A DNA stretch of 64,000 nt from an uncultured Armatimonadia bacterium (GTDB taxonomy: Bacteria > Armatimonadota > Zipacnadia > Zipacnadales > UBA5352), in assembly GCA_964617715.1 (NCBI GenBank), contig CAZTZN010000004.1, forward strand, positions 5,639 to 69,638. Direction: 5' to 3'. Below the pieces are notes generated by a model that was given only the letters and a program-made list of their open reading frames with translations, did no database searches and was not told the origin of the DNA. The translations under genes and the position numbers were made by a program. Shown one piece after another: positions 3,041-58,514 of this stretch. Position 1 is the first letter of the stretch. Every line of letters starts with the position of its first letter.

Positions 3041-5029
3041 ATGAGGCAGACCACCGAGCGCGTTCTCGCCCTGGAAGAGGCGGCACTGCCTCCGCGCTCG
3101 GCGCTGGTGGGTGTGACCGTGCGCGGCCTCGTGCTGGTCGTGCTCCTGACGCTCTTCACCTACCTGGTCATAAACCGCCTGGGCTTCATGCAGCTCGTGC
3201 CGCCGGTGCCGGCGCTCATCCTGCTGCTTTTGCTGGTGATCTGCAACAAGCTGGTGGCGCTGCTGGCGCGCGCCTTCCCGCTCGGCGGCTGGCTGCGCCC
3301 GCTCTCGCGCGGCGAGCTGCTCCTGATCTACGCCGCACTGTCGATCGCCCCGGTGATGGACCGGGGCGTCTACGTCATACACTACCTGCTCTACCCGATC
3401 TACTACGGCAACGATGTCAACCAGTGGCAGGAGTTCGCGCGGCATTACCCGGGCTTCTACATCCCTGAGGACCATGCCGTCGCCCAGGGGTTCTGGGAGG
3501 GCTCCAGCACCGGCCTGATCCCGTGGGCGGCTTGGCGCCTCCCCCTGATGTACTGGATGAGCTTCAACCTGCTGGTGATGGTCGCGGTCGGCTGCCTGGT
3601 GGCGTTCTTCCGGCGGCAGTGGGCCGAGGCCGAACGCCTGCGCTATCCGCTGCTGTTCCTGCCGCTCGAGATCACCGGCGGCTTCGAGGGCTCGGCGGTC
3701 CACCGTGGCTTCTTCTTCCGCGACCCCCTCATGTGGATCGGCTTCATCGCCGCCGCGCTCTTCAACGGCGCGCGCATCCTGCACGAGATCTACCCGGCGG
3801 TGCCCGAGATCAAGCTCTACATCCGACTGGCCACCAGCTTCGCCGATCCCCCCTGGCGCTGGATCCGGCCGCTGAACCTCTTCCTCATCCTCGACGTGTG
3901 GGGGCTGTCCTACCTGATGCCCGGGGATGTGCTGCTCACCGCCTGGGGCTCCTACTTCCTGATGAAGACCATCAAGGTCGTCGGGCTGTACGCGGGCTAT
4001 CGCCGGGCCCGCTTCCCGTTCTACCAGGAGGTCAGCTCGGGGGCGTGCGTCGCGGTCTGCCTCTACATGTTCTACGTCTCACGGCGTCACTTCCGCCGCG
4101 TGCTCGGGCGCATCATCCGGGGGCCGGGCGAGTACGACCGCAACGAGGCGATGAGCTATCGCCTGTTGCTCATCGTGTTCGTCGCGGCGACCGCGGCCAT
4201 GATGACCATGCTGCTGCGGGCCGGGCACCGCATCGACCTGCTGCTGATCTATTTCGCCAGTCTGTACATGTTCGTGCTGGTAACCGCCCGCATGCGCGCC
4301 GAGGCCGGGCCGCCCGTGCCCTGGACTCACCCCTACGGCTACGACACCGAGATGCTCTACCATCTGCTGGGCAATCGCTACATTCGCGGCCTGGGCTCGC
4401 TGCAGCCCATGGTGCAGTTCTACTCGCTGTTCTACATCGGCCGCACCGTCTTCGCCCACAGCGCCGGCCAGTACTTCGCCGACGGCTACCGTGTCATCGA
4501 CTACGGCAACGCCAGGCGCAGCTCGGTGTTCAAACTCATGCTGCTCGTGTGCCTGCTTTCGGTATTCCTGGCGTTCTGGACCCACCTGGACCTGGGCTAC
4601 CGCCACGGTCAGGCGTTCTACTTCGCCGCCGAGGGGCGCGAACACCGCACCTGGCCGATCGCGTGGTCGAGCTACAACTACCGGCTGCTTGACGCGGGGG
4701 TGGACAAACCGGCGGGACCCAACATGTCGCGCATGGCGGGCTATGTCGGCGGCTTCGTGGGCACGGCAATCATCACCTGGGGGCGGCTGAACGTGAGCAA
4801 CTTCCCGCTGCACCCGCTGGGGGTGGTGATGGGCACGCTCTACAATGACTGGTCGCCCTACTGGGCGCCCTTCCTCATCGCGTGGATCGCCCAACGCATC
4901 ACGCTGCGCTACGGGAGTCTGCCCGCGTACCGGCGGATGGTGCCGCTCTTCCTCGGCCTGTTCCTGGGGCACACGATCGTCGGCAATGTCCTGCGCCGCA
5001 TCATCATTCGGCTGGGGCCGGCGGGGTAG
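3041..5029 (+). CDS. Polytopic membrane protein, 662 aa, uncharacterised family. Paralog of 55913..57892.
   Basis: More than 10 hydrophobic spans. Blocks shared with the paralog: GFWEGSSTGLIPWAAWRLPLMYW vs GFFEGARTPGGIPWELWRGPLMRW; RRQWAEAERLRYPLLFLP vs RRRWIDHERLPFPLAEIP; IYPAVPEI vs YIPAVPEI; YLMP. Co-directional with its flanking genes. Confidence 0.7.
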   Translation: MRQTTERVLALEEAALPPRSALVGVTVRGLVLVVLLTLFTYLVINRLGFMQLVPPVPALILLLLLVICNKLVALLARAFPLGGWLRPLSRGELLLIYAALSIAPVMDRGVYVIHYLLYPIYYGNDVNQWQEFARHYPGFYIPEDHAVAQGFWEGSSTGLIPWAAWRLPLMYWMSFNLLVMVAVGCLVAFFRRQWAEAERLRYPLLFLPLEITGGFEGSAVHRGFFFRDPLMWIGFIAAALFNGARILHEIYPAVPEIKLYIRLATSFADPPWRWIRPLNLFLILDVWGLSYLMPGDVLLTAWGSYFLMKTIKVVGLYAGYRRARFPFYQEVSSGACVAVCLYMFYVSRRHFRRVLGRIIRGPGEYDRNEAMSYRLLLIVFVAATAAMMTMLLRAGHRIDLLLIYFASLYMFVLVTARMRAEAGPPVPWTHPYGYDTEMLYHLLGNRYIRGLGSLQPMVQFYSLFYIGRTVFAHSAGQYFADGYRVIDYGNARRSSVFKLMLLVCLLSVFLAFWTHLDLGYRHGQAFYFAAEGREHRTWPIAWSSYNYRLLDAGVDKPAGPNMSRMAGYVGGFVGTAIITWGRLNVSNFPLHPLGVVMGTLYNDWSPYWAPFLIAWIAQRITLRYGSLPAYRRMVPLFLGLFLGHTIVGNVLRRIIIRLGPAG

Positions 5030-5262
5030 GGGGTAGTCTGACTCGGGCCCCGGCATCACAGTACCCGGACTTCGACCGGCGCCACCGACAGCATCACCTC
5101 CGCCACGACGGCGAGCACGACCACGGCGCCCGGCGTCTCGAGCATCGTCACAGGCGGGCCTCCACGGGAGACGACTGTGCAGGAGGCAGCGCCGGGCCCC
5201 GGGATGAGTCTCCGCAGGGGCCGCCCGCACCTGCGGCGAACCGCCCGCCCGAGGTGATGGCG

Positions 5263-6243
5263 ATGCGCGATCCGTCGCGGACGGACTTCCTGAGCGAGGC
5301 CGGGTGGGGCGTCTTCCTGCACTACCTCGCGCCGGTGGTCGCGGGCGACGATGTCGATCCCGCGACCTGGCAGCGGCTGGTGGCGGGCGTCGATGTCGAT
5401 GGCCTGGCCGACCAACTCGCCGACGTGGGCGCCGGCTATCTGTTTATCACACTGGGCCAGAACTCGGGCTACTACCTCTCACCGAACCAGGCCTATGACC
5501 GCATCGTTGGCCGCGAGCCCTCACGCTGCGCGGAGCGCGACCTGGTCGCGGACCTGTACGCGGCGCTGGCGCCTCGCGGCATTCACCTACTGGTCTACCT
5601 GCCCTCGGGCGCGCCCGACCGCGATGAGCGGGCGATGCAGGCCCTCGGCTGGCGCAAGGGCACACAGCCGATCCACGCGCGGCCGACGCGAGGCGCCGAT
5701 GAGCACGGACGGCCCTGGGGCATCAACAACCCGCGCCTGGAGGGCTTTCAGCGCAAGTGGGAGGCGGTCATCGCCGAGTGGTCTCGACGCTGGGGGGAGC
5801 GCGTGCGCGGCTGGTGGTTCGACGGCTGCTACTACCCGGAGATGTACGAGAGCCCGTTCCCGCCCAACTGGGCCAGCCTGTGCGCGGCCGCGCGTGCGGG
5901 CAACCCGAACAGCATCGTCGCCTTCAACCCGGGGGTGATGGTGGACCTGATGGTGCTCACCGAGCACCAGGACTACGCGGCGGGGGAGATCAGCGACACC
6001 TTCCCACCCTGCGCCGGGCGTTTCATTCACGGCGTACAGTGGCACGTACTCAGCTACCTCGGCGACACCTGGGGCCATGGTGAGCGGCCGCGCTTCGCCG
6101 ACGACTTCCCCGAGCGGTACACGGGCGCGGCCGTCGAGCAGGGGGGCGTGGTGACCTGGGACGTGCCGCCCCGGCCCGACGGCCTCATCGACGATGTGTT
6201 CCTGCGGCGCCTGCGGTCCATCGGCGCCGCCGCTCACGGCTGA
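5263..6243 (+). CDS. Hypothetical TIM-barrel-like protein with weak GH29 (alpha-L-fucosidase)-like blocks; no signal peptide
   Basis: ATG at 5263 with GAGGTG at 5251-5256; alternative ATG at 5257. The ORF track starts at 4882, but the upstream 125 aa are low-complexity junk. Blocks GWGVFLHYL, RDLVADLYAALAPRGIHLLVYLP and RVRGWWFDGCYYPE resemble the GH29 blocks GIFIHWG / RDLVGEL-KA-RK-GLKFGVYYS / WFDG. The canonical HHDGF nucleophile block is absent. Confidence 0.5.
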   Translation: MRDPSRTDFLSEAGWGVFLHYLAPVVAGDDVDPATWQRLVAGVDVDGLADQLADVGAGYLFITLGQNSGYYLSPNQAYDRIVGREPSRCAERDLVADLYAALAPRGIHLLVYLPSGAPDRDERAMQALGWRKGTQPIHARPTRGADEHGRPWGINNPRLEGFQRKWEAVIAEWSRRWGERVRGWWFDGCYYPEMYESPFPPNWASLCAAARAGNPNSIVAFNPGVMVDLMVLTEHQDYAAGEISDTFPPCAGRFIHGVQWHVLSYLGDTWGHGERPRFADDFPERYTGAAVEQGGVVTWDVPPRPDGLIDDVFLRRLRSIGAAAHG

Positions 6244-6246
6244 AGC

Positions 6247-8685
6247 TCAGTCGGCCCGCTCGATGACCGCCATCTCGCCCTCGCCCAGCGCCAGGCGCAC
6301 CAGCCGCCGGCCATCCTCGATGCGCTGCTCACCTGTGTTCGGCGTCAGCGCCCCATCGGCCCCGTACCAGTAGACCGTGACCGGCGCGTCGTCGCCGAGG
6401 GTGAAGGTCCCCGGCACGCAGGTGATCAGCCGCTCCTCGCCCAGCAGCCAGCCGCGGTGCAGCTCCACCGGCGTGAACGGGAACATGTGCCCGGTGATGG
6501 TCGGGTGCGGCTGCGTGGGCCGCGAGTAGTAGTAGTAAACCGTGCCCCACATGAGCTTGAGGCGGATGTCGGCCAGCAGGTCTTCGAAGTTCTTGATGAC
6601 CAGATGATCTCCCAGTGAGATCGGCGTATACAGGTGCGAGCGCGCCGGGTACCAGGTGGCTGCGGTCTCTACGAAGCGCGGGAAGTGGTAGTCGCTGAGC
6701 GTGGCGGTGCGCGGGCAGGAGTTGCCGATGAGCGCGCCGCCCCTGGCGAAGATGTAGTCGATCAACTGCGCCTTGGCCTCCAGCGACAACAGTTGCGGGT
6801 CGCCGAACCTGCGTACGATCCGGTGCCGCTCATCCAGCTCCGCTGAGTGCCCGTCCCAACGGTCGTAACTGCGCTTGGGCGAGATCATCTCCAGCTCGTC
6901 CCAGTAGATGCCGTCGGCGCCGATGCGGTCGTCGTCGAGGCACATGTCGATGACCTGCTTCATGGCCTCGAAGTAGGAGTTGCCGATGGCCGGGTAGCAG
7001 TAGTAGAAGGTCATGCCGATGCGGTTGGTGTAGCCCTGATTGACGTAGGGCGTGCCGTCCTCGTTGGTGATAAGCGAGTCGGGGAAGCGCGCGGGCGTGT
7101 CCTCGTACAGGTTGATGAAGCTGTGAATGTAGATGAGTGACTTCACCTCGGGTGTCGCCGCGCGCAGGTTCGCGCAGGCCTGCCGGAAGCGCTCCTGCAG
7201 ATGCGTGGCCTCCAGCATCTGCGCCCCGTGGTAGTAGGGCGGGTCGCCGCCGATGTTGGCCCAGGTGCCGGTTGACACGAAGGCCAGGTCGCGTTCCCGC
7301 ACCATCGCGCGGATGTCGTCGGCGCTCATGTCGGCGAGGCTGGAAAGACCGAACTGGAAGCCGCCGGGCACGGTGAAATTCACGTTCAGGTCGCGGCGGC
7401 ACAGGTTGATGAGGTCAAAGTAGTCCGGGCGCAGGACCGGGTAGACCGCCCAGCGCAGCGTGTACTCCCCGCCCGCGGGCAGACAGAACACGTCGCTGCG
7501 CACCCCTGCCGCGCCGGCCGCGTCCCAGTAGAACACACCCTGCACCCGCGCCACATCATCGAGCGCCAGCAGCCCGCAGCCCGCCTGCGCGCCGGCGATG
7601 AAGACCGTGGAGTTCTCGTAGCCGCGCAGTTGCGCCACCGCCGGGTCGGGATTGCCGCACAGATACGCGTCCTTGATCTCTTCTAGGGGCGCGCGCAACT
7701 CGTGCGCCCACGCCAGCCCGATGTCCCGGTCGGCGAGGTTGCGCAGTCGGTCCTCGATGAGCAGGTGATCGCCCTCGAAGGTGACCGTGCGCTCGACGTC
7801 GTAGTCGGGCGCATGCCCGAGGGCGCCCGCGCCATCCTCGCCACCCCTCACCTCGACGCGCCAGCCCTCCTGCCCCTCAGGCGCACCGGTCGCGGGCATG
7901 GTATTGAAGCCGCCGCCCTCGTACGAGAACCGGGAGACTACCTCGACACCCAGGCCCGGCAGCGTGATGGTCATGCCGCCGCCTTCACCCACCGCCGCAA
8001 CTTCGCCGATGGTCGCGGTCGCCGGGGGCTGGACCATCAGCCGATCGGGCGAGAACTCCTCCTCGGCAGCGACCTGCCCCTTCACCACCGCCGGCTCGTC
8101 GGACAGCTCCACGCCAAGCTCCGCAAAGACCAGGTCGAGCGTCGGGTTGTCCTCCGGAAAGTACGAGCGCAGGTTCATACCCGGGCCCCGATGGGTGATA
8201 GTGAGCGTATTCTCTTCGCCCGGGCGCACCAGGTCGGTGATGTCGATGATGAAGCGGTAGGCCGAGACCTCGACCATCTCGCCGCCCACCTCGGCCTGGT
8301 AGCCCAGCGGCGTGAAGTCGGGCGCGTAGACCACGCGCCAGTTGGCACCCTGCGCCCAGGGAATGCGCAGGCCTCCGGGCATGATGGCCTCGAGCGGCTT
8401 GTTGATCAGCCGCACCGCCGACCGGGTTGCGGCGGCGTTGAGCGGGTCACCGTTGACCGCGAGCCCCATGACGTAGGTCGATCCCGCGGTGCGCGGCGAG
8501 TCCATGCGCACCTCGTAGATCAACCGCACAGAGGCGTAGTCACCCTCCGGCGTGAAACTCAGCTCGGCCTCCTCGCCGTAGGGCAGCACCCAGCCGGGCT
8601 CGGCCAGCTCGATGGTCTCGGCCGCCGCCGGCAGTGTGGCGAGCATTCCCAGGACCAGCACGATCGCCATGCGCATTGCGGTCAC
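6247..8685 (-). CDS. Secreted hypothetical protein, 812 aa, probably glycan-active (W/Y-rich C-terminal region)
   Basis: Signal peptide MTAMRMAIVLVLGMLATLPAAAE. A long coherent frame on the minus strand. Stop lies 10 nt from the start of the downstream-upstream neighbour 8696..11350, so they are probably co-transcribed. Confidence 0.65.
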   Translation of the reverse strand: MTAMRMAIVLVLGMLATLPAAAETIELAEPGWVLPYGEEAELSFTPEGDYASVRLIYEVRMDSPRTAGSTYVMGLAVNGDPLNAAATRSAVRLINKPLEAIMPGGLRIPWAQGANWRVVYAPDFTPLGYQAEVGGEMVEVSAYRFIIDITDLVRPGEENTLTITHRGPGMNLRSYFPEDNPTLDLVFAELGVELSDEPAVVKGQVAAEEEFSPDRLMVQPPATATIGEVAAVGEGGGMTITLPGLGVEVVSRFSYEGGGFNTMPATGAPEGQEGWRVEVRGGEDGAGALGHAPDYDVERTVTFEGDHLLIEDRLRNLADRDIGLAWAHELRAPLEEIKDAYLCGNPDPAVAQLRGYENSTVFIAGAQAGCGLLALDDVARVQGVFYWDAAGAAGVRSDVFCLPAGGEYTLRWAVYPVLRPDYFDLINLCRRDLNVNFTVPGGFQFGLSSLADMSADDIRAMVRERDLAFVSTGTWANIGGDPPYYHGAQMLEATHLQERFRQACANLRAATPEVKSLIYIHSFINLYEDTPARFPDSLITNEDGTPYVNQGYTNRIGMTFYYCYPAIGNSYFEAMKQVIDMCLDDDRIGADGIYWDELEMISPKRSYDRWDGHSAELDERHRIVRRFGDPQLLSLEAKAQLIDYIFARGGALIGNSCPRTATLSDYHFPRFVETAATWYPARSHLYTPISLGDHLVIKNFEDLLADIRLKLMWGTVYYYYSRPTQPHPTITGHMFPFTPVELHRGWLLGEERLITCVPGTFTLGDDAPVTVYWYGADGALTPNTGEQRIEDGRRLVRLALGEGEMAVIERAD

Positions 8686-52275: not shown

Positions 52276-53295
52276 CTACTGCGGGGGCGGCAGCGCAACG
52301 GGGAGATCCGCCTCCCCGAGCTGCGCGAAGCACTCGTTAGTGCGTACGAAGGCCAGCAACAGCCGGTCCAGGTTAGGTTTCTGGCTGTGATAGCAGCGAA
52401 TGGCCGCGTCCTTGGCGTGTTCCTCAGTGGGGCTCAGTGGCAGCTCCAGCCATGTACGGTCGTTCAGCGCCGCCGGCGGCAGGAGGCCCAGCGCGGGTGA
52501 GTAGCCGCGCGGCGTCGGCCAGTGCGGCCAGTGGATCAGGTAACCGTAGACACTCAGCTCGCGGGTCCACGCCGTCCCCTGGGCCAGCAGCCCCGCCACG
52601 GCCGCGACCGTGATCTCTGCGGTGGCCCGATGGTCCGGGTGAATGTCCTCGGGCAGCACGACGAACAGCATGGTCGGGCGCGTGCGTGACAGCAGCGCTT
52701 CCATGTCGGCCCGGAGCTGCTCGCCGCAGTACACCGCGTCGGGTGTGAAGGCCCGTGAGTAGGGACAGGCACAGGCGCCGGTGTACGGTGAGGTATACGG
52801 CCGCTCCGGGGACCAGTGTTCAGGCGTGAGCAGCTCCTGCAGACCATTGTTCGGGTAGCCCAGGAAGTGCACGTGACGCGGGGGCACTCCCAGTGCCGCG
52901 AGCGCCGCCAGAGTCTCCCGTTGGCGGATCTCTCCCAGGCCGCGGTACTGCACGGGCGTGCGCCGCGCCACCTTCCCGGCGAAGATCAGCGACAGTTCCG
53001 AGGCGTCGCCGTTGGTCAGCAGACCCACCTGCAGGTCCGCTCCGGCCACCACGGAGCGCCGGATCAGCCCCGCGCACCCCAGGACCTCATCATCGGGATG
53101 GGGCGCGATCACCAGCACGCGATCATCCGCGGTCGGCGCCGGCAGCTCGCCCGACCACTGCGTGATGCGCAGGAGGTGCTCCCAGGCGAAGTGCCCTGAA
53201 ATATGCAGGATCGCGAGCGTCACGGCGGCGAACACCATCGCCACCACGAGTGCCTCGCGCTTCGTCCCTCTCCCCCTGCTCAGGCGAATCAGCAT
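52276..53295 (-). CDS. PIG-L / LmbE-family N-acetylglucosaminyl deacetylase with an N-terminal TM anchor, 339 aa
   Basis: ATG at 53295; the track ORF extends to 53424. Motifs VLVIAPHPDDEVLGCAG and HPDH. Confidence 0.8.
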   Translation of the reverse strand: MLIRLSRGRGTKREALVVAMVFAAVTLAILHISGHFAWEHLLRITQWSGELPAPTADDRVLVIAPHPDDEVLGCAGLIRRSVVAGADLQVGLLTNGDASELSLIFAGKVARRTPVQYRGLGEIRQRETLAALAALGVPPRHVHFLGYPNNGLQELLTPEHWSPERPYTSPYTGACACPYSRAFTPDAVYCGEQLRADMEALLSRTRPTMLFVVLPEDIHPDHRATAEITVAAVAGLLAQGTAWTRELSVYGYLIHWPHWPTPRGYSPALGLLPPAALNDRTWLELPLSPTEEHAKDAAIRCYHSQKPNLDRLLLAFVRTNECFAQLGEADLPVALPPPQ

Positions 53296-53347
53296 GTCAA
53301 TCACAGGTCTCGTGCGGGAGAGGGGCACTCCTCCCGGCGCCCGGACT

Positions 53348-54619
53348 TCACCGGCGCAGGTCGAAGCACAGCAGGTTCCCGTCGAGGTCACGAACGTAGA
53401 CGCGCCTGTCCGCCAGCGCCACATGCGGCCATGTGTGCGCCGACCCCACGCCCGGGCGCACGGACAGCTCGGTGTACATGTTCGGCGACCGCGCGGCGCT
53501 CTCGCATAGCGTCAGCCGCCGGTTGCCCAGGACGATCAGCCGATCGTCGCCGGTCAGGATCAACGAGGCGTCATCGCTGAATGAGCCGCCCTGCCACAGG
53601 AGCCGTCCGGTCTCCCAGTCGAGGCAGCGCAGCTTCTGCCAGGCGAAGTAGACGCGTCCACCGTGGATGACCGGCGTGCACACCTTCGAGTACTGGCCCT
53701 TCGCCTCCCACACCAGCTCGGCGCCCCCCGGCGTCACCCGCACGCGCGCTGCGCGCTGCTGGCTGTAGCCGCTGGTGAGCAGCACGCTGTCACCGAACGC
53801 CACCGGGCTGGCGATGGAGTTCGCGTAGGCGGTCTCCCACGGGAACTCGGCCATCGTCTCGCCCTCATGGCCGGCGTCCAGCCGCGCCACCAGCAGGCGG
53901 CGCAGCGTCAGCACCGCTACGCACGGCACGCCTTCGACGGTCATCAGCGCCAGGCCCGCGGTGTGGCCCGCCGGGTCGGCGCGCTGCGACGTCCATATCT
54001 GCTCGCCGGTGCGCTTGTCGAAGGCGATCAGACTCCCCGTCGGGGCCCCCACCTCGACGATGAGCCACTCGCCCCTCACCAGCGGCGAAGTGGTGTAGCC
54101 GTAGTCGCGCAGGCCGCCGCTCACCTTCGGGCGCTGGCCTGCGCCGAAGCTGTCGTACAGATTGAGGCCCCAGATGCGCTCCCCCCCTCGCCGCGTGTCC
54201 CAGCAGTTGAGGTCGCCGTCGATGCTCAGCGTGTAGAGCAGGCCGGTCTCGGGGTCGAATTCGGGCGTGGAGGATGGACCGCGGTAGAGGCTCTCGTCGC
54301 CGGCGTGGAAGCGCCCCCACTTCGGGCAGGGATAGTCCCGGCTCCAGAGCAGCTCACCGGTCGCGGCATCGCGGCACTGCACGTGGTCGGCGTCATCGCT
54401 CCAGCCGATGGTGTAGAGACGCCCACCCGCGACGATGGGCGAGCTGCCTCCGGCGCCCACCTGTGCGCTCCATGCCGGGTCGCCGGGCGGCCACGCGCCC
54501 TCTTCCCACCCGGAAGTCTCAGCCGTAATGTCGGTGCGCTCCGGTCCGCGCCAGTGCGGCCAGTCGTCGGCGACGGCCAGCGTCGGGAGCGCTACGAGCA
54601 GCAGAACGATTCGGGTCAT
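53348..54619 (-). CDS. Secreted PQQ-like (BamB-type) beta-propeller repeat protein, 423 aa
   Basis: Signal peptide MTRIVLLLVALPTLAVA. The DDWPHWRGPERTD start is typical of this family. Repeated G.LYT/GELLW-type blades follow. Confidence 0.7.
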   Translation of the reverse strand: MTRIVLLLVALPTLAVADDWPHWRGPERTDITAETSGWEEGAWPPGDPAWSAQVGAGGSSPIVAGGRLYTIGWSDDADHVQCRDAATGELLWSRDYPCPKWGRFHAGDESLYRGPSSTPEFDPETGLLYTLSIDGDLNCWDTRRGGERIWGLNLYDSFGAGQRPKVSGGLRDYGYTTSPLVRGEWLIVEVGAPTGSLIAFDKRTGEQIWTSQRADPAGHTAGLALMTVEGVPCVAVLTLRRLLVARLDAGHEGETMAEFPWETAYANSIASPVAFGDSVLLTSGYSQQRAARVRVTPGGAELVWEAKGQYSKVCTPVIHGGRVYFAWQKLRCLDWETGRLLWQGGSFSDDASLILTGDDRLIVLGNRRLTLCESAARSPNMYTELSVRPGVGSAHTWPHVALADRRVYVRDLDGNLLCFDLRR

Positions 54620-54753
54620 CGCGCGGCTCCCTCATGCCGGGGAACAGTCACAGGCTCGAAACCTGCGCCACCAGGTGATGCCTTGGCTTCGGCGCGCCCA
54701 CCGGTCGTCCACCGTTCGCGGTCTGCCGTTCGCTCAGAGCCGGTAGCCGGCGG

Positions 54754-55791
54754 CTAACCCGTCTTTCCCCCGCGGTGCACCGGCACGCGTATGCCCAGGG
54801 TGTACGAGTCCCAGATCGCGTGCAGGAACTCCGAGGTGCTGATGCTGTCCTCCAGCGGACAGATCAGCGGCTCGTCGCGCAGGATCGCGCCCAGGATGTT
54901 CGCGGTGCGCGTGTGATCGCCGTGGCCGGTATCCGAGCCCGCCTCGATGGGTCGCTCGCCATCGGCGTCGGCGATCACCCCGGTGTACTCGCCCTTCTGG
55001 TTCATCACCGTGTGAATGGTGCCCTTCGTGCCCTGGAGCACCACCACGGTCGGGTTGCGCAGGCCATCAGGCGGCGAAACCCCCGCGACCATGGTACACG
55101 CGCCACCGCCCTCAAAGGTCGCGACGGCGCTGATGCCGTAGCGGCGGCGGTAGGCGAAGACCTCGTCGGCATCGCCCATGAAGTAGCGCGCCAGATCGAA
55201 CACATGCGTTGGCCCCGCAGCTTCGGAGGACGGGATGTAACGCCCTCCCAGGTCCGAGAGCATCCCGTAGCCGGGTGCCTGGCGACGCGCGATCCCCTGC
55301 TCCACCGGCTCCCCGTGCATGGGGTGGTTCCAGGTGAACTGCCCGGCGAAGATCTCGCCGATCGCCCCTTCACTGACGAGCCGCCGGGCCGCGACGTTCA
55401 CCGGGTAGTAGCGCAGTGAGTAGGCCACCGCGACCCTGGGCTCGGGGCAGCGCATGCGCCAGTAACGCAGCAGGCGGCACTCCTCGAGCGTGTAGCCGGT
55501 CGGCTTCTCAGTGACGATGTGCTTGCCCGCCTGCAGCGCAGCGATGATCTGCTCGGCATGCAGGTGGCTGGGGGTGCAGATGTCCACGATGTCGATGTCG
55601 TCGCGCTCGAGCGCGTCCTCGTAGCGCGTCGAGATCGGCGTGTCGGGCGGCAGCTCAAGCTGCTCGCGCGCCTCCTCCGCGAGTGACTCGTCGAGGTCCA
55701 CGAGCATGACCACCTCGGCCTCCGGGTGGCCCTGCCACGCCCGGATGTGTCCGCGCGAGACCTTGCCGCTGCCGATGATCGCGACTTTCAT
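54754..55791 (-). CDS. Gfo/Idh/MocA-family NAD(P)-dependent oxidoreductase, 345 aa
   Basis: ATG at 55791 with GAGGAGGA 8 nt upstream. MKVAIIGSGKVSRGHIRAW Rossmann fold; EKP motif (HIVTEKP). Confidence 0.85.
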   Translation of the reverse strand: MKVAIIGSGKVSRGHIRAWQGHPEAEVVMLVDLDESLAEEAREQLELPPDTPISTRYEDALERDDIDIVDICTPSHLHAEQIIAALQAGKHIVTEKPTGYTLEECRLLRYWRMRCPEPRVAVAYSLRYYPVNVAARRLVSEGAIGEIFAGQFTWNHPMHGEPVEQGIARRQAPGYGMLSDLGGRYIPSSEAAGPTHVFDLARYFMGDADEVFAYRRRYGISAVATFEGGGACTMVAGVSPPDGLRNPTVVVLQGTKGTIHTVMNQKGEYTGVIADADGERPIEAGSDTGHGDHTRTANILGAILRDEPLICPLEDSISTSEFLHAIWDSYTLGIRVPVHRGGKTG

Positions 55792-55810
55792 GGCGACGAT
55801 CCTCCTCGAG

Positions 55811-55855
55811 AAGTCGCAAGTCGCAAGTCGCAAGTCACAAGTCGCAAGTCGTAAG
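55811..55855. repeat. Heptanucleotide tandem repeat, (AAGTCGC) x about 6.4 with two variant units (AAGTCAC, AAGTCGT). It lies immediately upstream of the SD of the Gfo/Idh/MocA gene and downstream of the stop of 55913..57892.
   Basis: Seen directly: aagtcgc aagtcgc aagtcgc aagtcac aagtcgc aagtcgt aag. Confidence 0.9.
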
Positions 55856-55912
55856 CTGACGGTGACGGCATGTGCGGGCCAGGCGCATGGACCGCGATTC
55901 TGCCCGCACTCC

Positions 55913-57892
55913 CTACCCCGGCGGGCCAGCAATCATCCCGATGACGATCCACATGGCCTGGGTCAACGCCCCACCGAGCACCAGCCCCAGAAACAGCGGG
56001 CGCAGGTGCAGGTAGCTGCGCGGGCCCGAGTACTTGGTGATCACGCGCGCGACGATCCAGCCGATCATCACCGAGAACCACTGCGCGGTGATCTGCCACC
56101 CGCACGGGATGAGCATGCCCAGCGGATGCACCGGCCACCACATGAACTGGCGGTACATGAACTGGAGCGCCCACATCAGCCCCGCGCCCAGCAGCATCCA
56201 GTGGAAGCTCAGCGCCGGGTTGGGCTGGTCGATCATGCGCATCGCCCACAGCACTCCGTAGTAGGGCGAGCCCATGCCGCCGGAATGCTGCTGCCAGCGT
56301 GACGTGGTGGACAACATCAGGCTCTCGTTGTACGCCAGGTGCATGAGCGCGATTGAGTTGATGGCGATCAGGGCGGCGCCGGCGACCATGAGCGCGGTAA
56401 TGAAGCGCCGGTCGCCGAACCGCTCGGTGTCGGCGATCTTCAGGCCGTGAATGGCCTGAGGCTGCAGCGCATGGCGCTTGTACCATGAGAACATGGTGTT
56501 GAAGAAGCCGATCAGCGCCATGTTGCGCAGGCCGATCTCGCGTGCGGGCATCACGCCGGTGAGGAACTGGGCGGGCAGATTGTCGATCTGCAGCGCCGGC
56601 AGGCCCGACTGAGCGGTGAGCAGCGCGAAGCCGAAGGTCAGCGCCAGTGTGGCCAGCATGAAGCTCAGTGCCACCCACAGGCTGATGCCCGCTGAGACGC
56701 TCCACCAGCACATCGCCAGCAGCCCCAGCACGAACGCGGCCAGCATCCACCGGTCGGGATGCCGGCGCCGGGCCGGCCCGCGGCGCAGGTCCTCCCACAG
56801 ATCGCGCACCATCTGCCCGATCTCGCCGCGTGAGGCCCAGAACACGAAGCTCAGCAGGCCGAGGTAGGCGCCGCCCTGGATGTCCTTCTGGCTGCCCCAG
56901 CGGCTCCAGCGCAGCGGGCCCAGCGTCGGGTCCCCGAGGAACCGAGACAGCACCATGATCCCGATCATCAGCAGGAAGAAGGCGAAGATGCCCAGCGCGA
57001 TCGCAGACGGCATCAGATAGGCGATGCCGATCAGCGGCAGGTCTACCCACGCTCGCGACCACGATGCCCCGGCGAGGATGTTCCACGGCGCGTTCTCGAA
57101 CAGCACGCTCAGGGTGAAGTTGCGCGGGATCTCGGGGACCGCCGGTATGTAGCGGTGCAGGCCGTTGATGCTCTCCAGCAACGCCACCACGCCGATGCCG
57201 ATGCCCATCAGGCGGGTGCGGCCGGAGGTCTCGGCCATGCCGAAATGCCCGTGACCGGCGACGAACATGGGGATCTCGGCCAGCGGGAAGGGCAGGCGCT
57301 CGTGGTCGATCCAGCGGCGCCGGAAGATGCCGAGCATGGCGATGCCGGTGACCAGGTAGAGCAGCGCCAGCACGCCCCAGCGCATCAACGGCCCCCTCCA
57401 CAGCTCCCAGGGGATGCCGCCGGGGGTGCGCGCGCCCTCGAAGAAGCCGCGGGCGGCGACCTCGTTGGTGATCTGCAGTGTCTCGGCGATCGCCGGGATG
57501 GCCTCATCCTCGAAGCGGTTGGCGGAGGTGGCGAAGTAGCGCAGCGAGGGAATGATCTGCGGGATCTGCAGCACGGTAAAGGTGGTCGCGAAGCCGCCGA
57601 TACTCACCGTGAGCGCATACAGCAGCAGGCCACCGCGCACCAGCCGCTCGGCGCCGCCGAACCAGCGTCGGGCCATGGGCGCGATTATCCAGCACACGAA
57701 GGCGAGCAGCGCCAGCGGGCCCGCGGGCAAGTAGCCTCCGACCGGATCGCCGGCGCGGTACACGTACATGACCCAGGGGACCGCCGCGACGAAGCCGATG
57801 GCCAGCGCGCACACGAACACGACCGCCCCGACGCTCAGTCGGGGCACGTCATCGTGCGTCGCGACATTCCGTGTCTGCTGCGCGCGCGCCAC
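55913..57892 (-). CDS. Polytopic membrane protein, 659 aa. Paralog of 3041..5029. Starts at GTG.
   Basis: Homology blocks as listed for 3041..5029. The gene lies at the head of a minus-strand array: Gfo/Idh/MocA, PQQ-propeller, PIG-L. Confidence 0.7.
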   Translation of the reverse strand: MARAQQTRNVATHDDVPRLSVGAVVFVCALAIGFVAAVPWVMYVYRAGDPVGGYLPAGPLALLAFVCWIIAPMARRWFGGAERLVRGGLLLYALTVSIGGFATTFTVLQIPQIIPSLRYFATSANRFEDEAIPAIAETLQITNEVAARGFFEGARTPGGIPWELWRGPLMRWGVLALLYLVTGIAMLGIFRRRWIDHERLPFPLAEIPMFVAGHGHFGMAETSGRTRLMGIGIGVVALLESINGLHRYIPAVPEIPRNFTLSVLFENAPWNILAGASWSRAWVDLPLIGIAYLMPSAIALGIFAFFLLMIGIMVLSRFLGDPTLGPLRWSRWGSQKDIQGGAYLGLLSFVFWASRGEIGQMVRDLWEDLRRGPARRRHPDRWMLAAFVLGLLAMCWWSVSAGISLWVALSFMLATLALTFGFALLTAQSGLPALQIDNLPAQFLTGVMPAREIGLRNMALIGFFNTMFSWYKRHALQPQAIHGLKIADTERFGDRRFITALMVAGAALIAINSIALMHLAYNESLMLSTTSRWQQHSGGMGSPYYGVLWAMRMIDQPNPALSFHWMLLGAGLMWALQFMYRQFMWWPVHPLGMLIPCGWQITAQWFSVMIGWIVARVITKYSGPRSYLHLRPLFLGLVLGGALTQAMWIVIGMIAGPPG

Positions 57893-57893
57893 T

Positions 57894-58056
57894 GTATCGT
57901 CCCGGCTCGGTCGGAGGATGGCCCGGCGCGGGTTTCGTCCCGAGCGTGTGCCATCCCTCCGCGCGCGCCCGGAGCGATGGCGAAAGGACCGACACAGCGC
58001 GCCACACAGCTCGCCGCCGGCACCGGCGGGATATCCCCTCAGTGCCGGACCACGAG
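57894..58056 (+). promoter_or_regulatory. Split occurrence of the conserved module: GTATCGTCCCGG (57894-57905) and CCGGACCACGAG (58045-58056), separated by a 143-bp structured segment flanked by CCGG
   Basis: The fused form GTATCGTACCGGACCACGAG occurs at 35702-35721. The second half lies 39 nt upstream of the response-regulator ATG. Confidence 0.35.
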
Positions 58057-58094
58057 AGCTTGGGCGTAAGACTCGATCTATTGGAGTGACGACG

Positions 58095-58496
58095 ATGGTG
58101 CAACTTGCCGAGCGGCCACAGGCGACCGAGAGCGCCCCGCCCCTGCTGCTGCTGGTGGACGACGATCCGAATCACCGCGAGATCTATCAGCGCCGACTGC
58201 AGCGCCGTGGCTATCGCGTGCGCGTGGCCGGGAGTGCCGACGCGGCCGTGGCGGCGCTGCGCGAGAGCATGCCGGCCGCGGTGGTGCTTGACATCGTCAT
58301 GCCCGCGCGTGACGGCCTCAGTGCGTTGCAGGAGATGATCGCACTCAGGCCCGATCTGCCCGTCATCATCCACAGCGCCTATCCGGTCTTCCGCGACGAC
58401 TTCACCGCGTGGATAGCCGACGCCTACGTGGAGAAGAGCTGCGACATCGAGCCGCTCTTGAGGGTGCTGGAGCGCACCCTGAGCCCGGCGGCGTAG
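58095..58496 (+). CDS. Single-domain (CheY-like) response regulator, 133 aa
   Basis: ATG at 58095 with GGAGTG upstream. LLLLVDDDPNHRE...AVVLDIVMPARDGL...PVIIHSAYP...YVEKS carries the D-D-D-T/S-K receiver signature. Confidence 0.8.
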   Translation: MVQLAERPQATESAPPLLLLVDDDPNHREIYQRRLQRRGYRVRVAGSADAAVAALRESMPAAVVLDIVMPARDGLSALQEMIALRPDLPVIIHSAYPVFRDDFTAWIADAYVEKSCDIEPLLRVLERTLSPAA

Positions 58497-58514
58497 TCGG
58501 GAGTTGGCGGCTCA

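Follow-up and report, generated by a model that had tools for sequence, protein, structure and literature searches.

Introduction

Among cyanobacterial STRR units, CCCCAGT, TTGGTCA and CAACAGT were reportedly described by Mazel et al. in 1990. Heptanucleotide SSRs are over-represented in prokaryotes, and a polymerase-slippage hypothesis has been put forward for them (Mrazek et al. 2007, via PMC4679880 and PMC4692102). In the summaries that these two papers give of Mrazek, Guo and Shah (2007), the heptanucleotide LSSR is the most abundant class in many genomes, lies mostly in intergenic DNA and varies between close relatives, with a polymerase-related slippage bias as the proposed cause. Dispersed heptamers have also been described as families, including GGGAATC / GGGGA(T/C)T in Xanthomonas and Nostoc (PMC4692102), the TAACTGA repeats of Beggiatoaceae, which lie directly upstream of start codons and for which a post-transcriptional network has been proposed (PMC4679880), and the dispersed four-heptamer elements of Geobacter (GGGACCG x4; PMC2700814). 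Heptanucleotide switches whose function is proven have another geometry. In H. influenzae hmw1A/hmw2A, 13-24 units of (ATCTTTC)n lie between promoters P2 and P1 and expression falls as the units rise (PMC8262952), and in E. coli K1 the 5' coding region of neuO carries 3-53 units of (AAGACTC)n, which gate the reading frame (PMC13001214).

Here we describe an array of the heptamer GCGACTT upstream of a Gfo/Idh/MocA oxidoreductase gene, found in a stretch of 64,000 nucleotides (hereafter the window). The array is likely a heptanucleotide VNTR, generated by slippage in an untranslated spacer that expanded recently, and it probably has little or no effect on regulation.

Results

A heptanucleotide array in a 121-nt spacer

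The array lies between two genes of the same orientation, and the features of the locus are as follows, in window coordinates.

52276-53424, minus strand: PIG-L gene (Pfam)
53348-54619, minus strand: PQQ_2 beta-propeller gene (Pfam)
54754-55791, minus strand: Gfo/Idh/MocA oxidoreductase gene, 345 aa, starting MKVAIIGSGK (Pfam PF01408, PF22725)
55781-55787, minus strand: AAGTCGC within codons 2-4 of Gfo, which reverse-complements the repeat unit exactly (inverted repeats I5-I8)
55792-55912, minus strand: untranslated spacer of 121 nt from the DUF6785 stop to the Gfo/Idh/MocA start (ORF coordinates, orthologue spacers)
55800-55807, minus strand: Shine-Dalgarno (SD) sequence GAGGAGGA, 3 nt (CTC) after the array and 8 nt (TCGTCGCC) before the ATG
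55811-55855, minus strand: heptanucleotide tandem array (TRF, direct sequence reading, excess over shuffles)
55872-55909, minus strand: perfect inverted repeat of 8 bp, GTGCGGGC / GCCCGCAC, with a 22-nt loop, just past the DUF6785 stop
55913-57892, minus strand: DUF6785 + DUF6784 polytopic membrane-protein gene (Pfam PF20581, PF20580)

TRF describes the array as 6.4 copies of period 7 with 92% matches, no indels, a score of 76 and the plus-strand consensus AAGTCGC. This score is the highest in the 64-kb window, where other arrays reach at most 3.7 copies. Read on the transcribed minus strand, the array is (CTT) ACGACTT GCGACTT GTGACTT GCGACTT GCGACTT GCGACTT, that is, six full units and a partial unit of 3 nt, with ACGACTT and GTGACTT as the two variant units. 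It consists of head-to-tail copies of a unit within the 1-11 nt that define an LSSR or VNTR, and its length is above chance expectation, as judged from the top TRF score and from shuffled sequence. A two-unit probe allowing up to two mismatches gave five overlapping matches in the whole 64-kb window, every one within the array; the same pattern averaged 0.35 matches in dinucleotide shuffles, and five or more were reached in 0 of 100. Outside the array, the 64-kb window has no (GCGACTT)2 site at this tolerance.

Along the minus strand the stop codon TAG of the DUF6785/DUF6784 gene (55915-55913) is followed by the spacer holding the array, then CTC, the SD, the 8 nt and the ATG (55791-55789), after which the ORF continues AAA GTC GCG. 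To the left of the array lies CACCGTCAGCTT, and the unique flanks of the locus are CACCGTCAGCTT ... CTCGAGGAGGATCG. An SD of the GGAGG type is kept at the equivalent place in all orthologues. The description of the locus in the first-pass annotation was accurate in every respect, namely the repeat, the stop at 55913, the start at 55791, the 121-nt gap, the SD and its 8-nt distance to the ATG, and the two variant units. The 8-bp inverted repeat has no T-run and is hence not a canonical terminator.

The position of the array relative to the coding sequence depends on where the Gfo ORF begins. Homologues of the Gfo protein at E <= 1e-30 (n = 99) are mostly 341-358 aa long with query coverage of ~100%, and the orthologous loci that we read all begin MKVAI(I/V)G(S/C)GK at the aligned position, with MNVAI in L129 (the L numbers denote the sequences compared with the window). 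Because the homologue lengths match and the orthologues begin MKVAI, the ATG at 55791 is the true Gfo start, and a start fixed there makes the array non-coding. An N-terminal extension was considered, in the form of an in-frame TTG ORF from 55932 that reads through the array as LRLATCD repeats. It was ruled out, since the eight-unit allele described below shifts its frame, the L124 allele carries an in-frame TGA inside a GTGACTT unit, and the homologues all start at MKVAI.

The GC content is 68-71% throughout the window, and the named close Gfo homologues come from Armatimonadota MAGs. The gene order DUF6785 to Gfo is found also in L001, L003, L004, L123, L124 and L212. Upstream of the DUF6785 gene and divergent from it is a stand-alone response-regulator receiver gene (window 57768-58496, plus strand), which is conserved in relatives at ~134 aa (L001 285-686, L123 380-784, L124 54-458); this conserved divergent gene suggests that the operon is under two-component control. 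The genes downstream of Gfo vary: the window has PQQ_2 and PIG-L (52276-54619), and L004 has a BNR_2 sialidase-like, a PQQ_2 and a GHL10/GHL6 glycoside hydrolase-like gene (4345-7041). Such differences would fit a glycan-processing operon of variable content, centred on the DUF6785 membrane protein.

Copy number differs among close relatives

Orthologous loci were gathered from the 90% clusters of the Gfo and DUF6785 proteins, whose members were looked up by exact protein sequence. The loci were compared with the window by blastn, their spacers were set side by side and the array-bearing ones were aligned; the comparison is one of assembled consensus sequences. A metagenome scan with the Gfo protein added L128, which equals L125, and one 73% relative without the array. 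The spacers are listed here with nucleotide identity to the window, except where amino acid identity is stated.

Window: spacer 121 nt, 6 units
L209 (JGI 3300033150): 98.9% over 2638 nt, flanks identical, spacer 135 nt, 8 units
L210 (Logan SRR15988952): 99.0%, contig begins inside the array, at least 3.7 units
L124, L125 (= L128), L126, L127 (four samples): ~85-91%, spacer 358 nt, 4 units
L123, L208: ~83-90%, spacer 29 nt, no array
L001: ~83-85%, spacer 121 nt of unrelated sequence, no array
L003 / L002: ~82-84%, spacer 29 nt, no array
L004: ~82-84%, spacer 12 nt, no array
L212: spacer 18 nt, no array
L129: 73% amino acid identity, no array within the last 199 nt upstream

The first-pass annotation had proposed that copy number be compared among related strains and MAGs, and this comparison bears out its expectation of variability. 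Whole-unit differences separate close genomes, with six units in the window, eight in the 98.9%-identical contig L209 and four in the sister lineage L124-L127, which is ~88-90% identical overall. The alleles of the window and L209 differ by exact multiples of 7 nt (spacers of 121 and 135 nt), and the composition of the arrays differs as well: L209 has ACGACTT x2 and GCGACTT x6, and the sister lineage has GTGACTT x3 + GCGACT, identical in all four samples. The position of the sister-lineage array matches that of the window, with the homologous left flank TGCCGTCGCCATCAGC (window: TGCCGTCACCGTCAGC), sharing TGCCGTC[A/G]CC[G/A]TCAGC, and the SD on the right. As judged from the window and L209, whole-unit changes occur while the flanking DNA diverges by ~1%, which is positive evidence for slipped-strand instability. 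Since four samples share one and the same four-unit allele, a very high mutation rate is not required.

Six more distant orthologous lineages lack the array, which is therefore not a conserved regulatory element. As judged from these loci, it appears to be young and confined to two sister lineages. The DUF6785-to-Gfo spacer is itself a hot spot of length change, with lengths of 12, 18, 29, 121 (two unrelated sequences), 135 and 358 nt, and the SD and the first Gfo codons are conserved despite these changes.

Chance similarity or an assembly artefact has practically no probability as an explanation of the array. The short contig L210 does begin inside the array, as happens at assembly-ambiguous repeats, but the 45-nt array is shorter than typical reads, none of the 100 shuffles reached the observed count, and the array is present in at least three independent assemblies of the window lineage and in five contigs (four samples) of the sister lineage; the independent assemblies already refute the artefact.

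The growth of the spacer from 12-29 nt to 121-358 nt solely in array-bearing lineages would also fit a small element, mobile or dispersed, that brought in the heptamer array and left a remnant in the spacer. Against such an origin, the non-array parts of the spacers of the window and L124 have no second copy in the window or the fetched loci, and there are no evident terminal inverted repeats or target duplications. The first of these points, which holds for all the sequences compared, led us to reject the view that the spacer is itself such an element. Likewise, no other copy of the 358-nt insert of the L124 lineage was found among the window and the fetched loci. Two features of arrays in other genomes, described in the next section, speak for a mobile origin, and with all of this in hand we regard it as extremely improbable.

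The period, not the unit sequence, is favoured in other genomes

An exact three-unit probe, (GCGACTT)3, matched at least 118 stretches in a collection of species-representative genomes, compared with a chance expectation, by our own arithmetic, of ~0.3 for a random 21-mer in 596 Gb. Among the matches listed are Cyanobacteria (many of them Nostoc), Acidobacteriota, Chloroflexota, Actinomycetota, several proteobacterial classes, Campylobacterota, Bacteroidota, Planctomycetota and even Woesearchaeota. Several loci per genome also occur among the matches listed, as in Uliginosibacterium flavum (5 contigs), Acidimicrobiia BMS9Abin07 (4 contigs) and Nostoc spp.

The stretches bearing (GCGACTT)3 were fetched (L005-L122, ~0.8 Mb) and searched with TRF for arrays of at least three copies. 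Period 7 predominates strongly, with 312 arrays against 20 of period 6 and 22 of period 8. These period-7 arrays use 121 different units, the 181 arrays other than the seed accounting for 120 further units. In viral contigs the real unit had 2 matches, against 1, 6 and 2 for three composition-matched permuted units. The 7-nt period is favoured, not the sequence GCGACTT; sequence specificity is rejected because neighbouring arrays use 121 units and viral contigs contain permuted units just as often. A special heptamer with a GACT/ACT core common to the STRR, neuO and TAACTGA units was sought and likewise rejected. At many of the fetched loci (for example L009, L011, L034, L038, L096 and L118), compound arrays of different heptamers stand side by side.

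These data bear on the idea that the array is a set of binding sites for a sequence-specific RNA- or DNA-binding protein, comparable to the Beggiatoaceae TAACTGA network or the Geobacter four-heptamer elements (PMC4679880, PMC2700814). The array does lie in forward orientation directly upstream of a start codon, and GCGACTT is found at several loci in other genomes (U. flavum, Acidimicrobiia BMS9Abin07, Nostoc spp.). However, the diversity of neighbouring units and the equal frequency of permuted ones count against recognition of a particular sequence. There is a single such array in 64 kb, the orthologous loci do not conserve it, and it is followed by a canonical SD, unlike the TAACTGA cases. 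Nor is there an orientation bias overall among 102 arrays elsewhere, which lie forward in 33 and reverse in 34 cases relative to nearby long ORF starts by an ORF heuristic that is crude and unreliable in high-GC genomes; in low-GC genomes, where the ORF calls are more trustworthy, 12 are forward and 5 reverse. We therefore regard binding by a sequence-specific protein as very improbable.

Some of the arrays elsewhere sit in structures of their own. In Nostoc and relatives (L006, L007, L008, L040, L063-L067, L085, L088, L094, L105, L106 and L120), (GCGACTT)3-5 lies inside a conserved dispersed element whose left flank occurs in two variants, ...ggggtctaaatccccgtcacaaaacttactt and ...tcgcagactcgct..cacaaaacttactt, and whose right flank (gttttaa) does not vary. 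The element has the look of a small repeat, mobile or dispersed, that carries a heptamer array. In L114 (2160-2250) and L022 (~7880-7940), (GCGACTT)3 faces its reverse complement across ~32 nt, which gives hairpin arms of ~30 bp, GGGACTTGGCGACTTGCGACTTGCGACTTG ... CAAGTCGCAAGTCGCAAGTCGCCAAGTCCC; in L114 the inverted pair accounts for two of the three (GCGACTT)3 arrays that lie within 8 kb. The conserved flanks in Nostoc and the inverted pairs in L114 and L022 are the two features that favour a mobile origin for the array in the window, but the flanks in the window are unrelated to the Nostoc element.

Expression is predicted to be largely insensitive to copy number

Slippage in an array that lies outside the ORF, upstream of the intact SD-8 nt-ATG arrangement, cannot frameshift Gfo or change the spacing between SD and ATG. 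The periodicity of the array also means that a change in copy number leaves the nucleotides next to the SD as they are. The array thus does not have the position of an ORF-type switch. A phase-variable locus has its repeat inside an ORF, or within or between core promoter elements, where the number of units alters the frame or the promoter geometry; the first is not the case here, and the second is weakly excluded by a scan with a sigma-70-like consensus, which does not extend to a promoter consensus for this phylum and which found no such promoter in the spacer. A consensus scan for intrinsic terminators in the spacer was also negative. By eye, TTGCGA-16 nt-GAGGAT can be read as a promoter, but this candidate was rejected: it has merely 4/6 + 3/6 matches, it is independent of copy number, and the leaderless transcript that it implies conflicts with the strong SD.

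According to the first-pass annotation, slippage would alter the promoter-to-RBS spacing or the coupling from the upstream gene. Neither is supported: no sigma-70-like promoter was found in the spacer, and a gap of 121 nt already abolishes coupling, however many units there are. The spacers of 12-29 nt in most orthologues make co-transcription of the DUF6785 and Gfo genes most likely.

We also considered the leader RNA as a site of control. An Rfam scan of 54000-58500 at E <= 1 gave no match, the leader does not fold to a lower energy than its dinucleotide shuffles (z = -0.37) and the array is absent from orthologues, so the locus does not present itself as a structured cis-regulatory RNA of the riboswitch or leader kind. 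The folds do contain two elements that involve the start region, in both the MFE and the centroid structure. A helix of 9 bp is predicted between a unit, UUGCGACUU, and codons 2-4, AAGUCGCGA, and a local hairpin, GCGAC.UUCUC / GAGGA..GUCGC, is predicted to cover part of the SD. Among composition-matched circular permutations of the unit, 10 of 90 match the duplex energy between array and start region, as do 7-12% of random 69%-GC units. We therefore judge the complementarity between the unit and codons 2-4, as predicted, to be compatible with chance, and a designed anti-start structure was rejected because the leader is no stabler than shuffles and permuted and random units match the duplex energy. 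Codon 2 of Gfo (55786-55788) is AAA in the window, L209 and L210 and AAG in all other orthologues. AAA is unusual at this codon for a 69%-GC genome and lengthens the pairing of the unit with the ORF start from 7 to 9 bp; the change is statistically compatible with chance.

The energy needed to open the start region, computed for SD..+13, is predicted at 10.9 kcal/mol without the array, ~17 with six units and 14.2 +/- 1.8 with scrambled units, and it is flat at 16-17.6 kcal/mol from 5 to 12 units. The folding model allows a modest effect of the presence of the array and predicts essentially no difference between 6 and 8 units. Because the unit is complementary to codons 2-4, some effect on translation may exist.

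These predictions are relevant to the possibility that the array is a contingency locus or expression rheostat, in which slippage alters the expression of the Gfo/Idh/MocA-PQQ-PIG-L genes. Two routes could be envisaged, through the structure of the leader RNA, where units pair with codons 2-4 and the UUCUC junction masks the SD, or through the distance from an upstream promoter, on the model of the graded response of hmw1A to ATCTTTC repeats in H. influenzae. The copy number is polymorphic (4/6/8 units), the array lies in sense orientation in the 5' leader within 11 nt of the SD, the 9-bp helix to the ORF and the SD-pairing hairpin appear in the MFE and centroid folds, the start site is predicted to take more energy to open when the array is present, and heptanucleotide SSRs have precedents for control (PMC8262952, PMC13001214). 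On the other side stand the constant SD-ATG geometry of an array outside the ORF, the flat accessibility from 5 to 12 units, the ease with which permuted (10/90) and random GC-rich (7-12%) units match the complementarity, the negative promoter scan of the spacer, the lack of an array in most orthologues and the invariance of the four-unit allele across four samples. The target genes are, in addition, not surface or host-interaction genes. Taken together, we regard a contingency locus of this kind as unlikely. Its most specific form is a slippage-tunable translational rheostat, in which the units UUGCGACUU would serve as alternative 9-bp partners for codons 2-4 AAGUCGCGA; from the folding predictions we consider this decidedly unlikely. 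In such a rheostat the UUCUC junction of array and leader would pair with the SD, and the number of units would set the occupancy of the inhibitory structure and with it the output of a sugar-processing operon, a step that we find equally doubtful.

The phase-variation reading of the first-pass annotation is accordingly supported in one part and unsupported in the other. The copy number is hypermutable, as the 4, 6 and 8 units across relatives attest, but a switch finds no support in the location outside the ORF and 5' of the SD, in the flat predicted accessibility between 5 and 12 units, or in downstream genes that are of a sugar-metabolism type and do not encode surface antigens.

Discussion

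The array itself, its position, its 4/6/8-unit polymorphism, its absence from the more distant orthologues and the unremarkable sequence of its unit are direct observations. What we infer beyond them is the slippage mechanism, co-transcription and near-neutrality. In the explanation that we prefer, a VNTR of little or no consequence, the array would have arisen in the expanded untranslated spacer between the co-oriented DUF6785 and Gfo/Idh/MocA genes, and whole 7-nt units would be gained and lost through slipped-strand mispairing in replication. Occasional transitions at unit positions 1-2 (A/G, C/T) would then be spread or lost by the same slippage. The array would be transcribed within the 5' leader or intercistronic RNA of the oxidoreductase gene, where a change in copy number would merely lengthen or shorten the leader upstream of the SD-8 nt-ATG arrangement, with a nil or slight effect on expression. 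On this basis, the array is probably near-neutral.

As it stands, the locus is of little significance, a further example of the over-represented heptanucleotide repeats of bacteria, seen here as three alleles in a phylum that has been little studied. The 6- and 8-unit alleles, whose 2.6 kb of flanking DNA has diverged by ~1%, offer a clean natural case of whole-unit change, and the array could be used as a strain-typing marker for this Armatimonadota lineage. The 312 period-7 arrays of 121 units, against ~20 each of periods 6 and 8 in L005-L122, touch on the preference for period 7 across phyla. The importance of the array would rise if copy number were shown to tune expression. To our knowledge, there are hardly any documented cases in which SSRs regulate genes of bacteria other than host-associated pathogens, or genes of metabolism as opposed to the cell surface; were the rheostat real, contingency-type SSR regulation would reach the metabolic genes of an environmental, non-pathogenic phylum.

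How the array compares with known systems depends on which of them is taken. Like hmw and neuO, it has a 7-nt unit in the 5' region of a gene and a copy number that is polymorphic through slippage. In contrast to neuO, it is outside the ORF, and in contrast to hmw it has 4-8 units and no mapped promoter. Its gene also differs from both, as it encodes a cytoplasmic-type oxidoreductase of an environmental Armatimonadota-like organism.

With the dispersed same-unit families the array shares shortness (2-8 units), an intergenic location, often near gene starts, and variation in length and sequence between strains, and GCGACTT itself is dispersed in Nostoc, Uliginosibacterium, Acidimicrobiia and other genomes. 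Those families have tens to hundreds of arrays of the same unit per genome, whereas the window has one in 64 kb. The TAACTGA arrays replace the SD, whereas this array is followed by the strong SD GAGGAGGA and so departs from that type. Its unit is not G-rich and so has no quadruplex potential.

The closest match is the heptanucleotide LSSR, as that class is summarised in PMC4679880 and PMC4692102. The array in the window is a tandem 7-nt unit, intergenic and above chance length, whose copy number and unit sequence vary among relatives, and period 7 dominates the array-bearing stretches here (312 against 20 and 22). Set against the class as those summaries give it, the array differs in nothing essential, with one array in 64 kb. 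It has all the defining features of an LSSR or VNTR, and is an ordinary member of a well-known class of bacterial heptanucleotide repeats.
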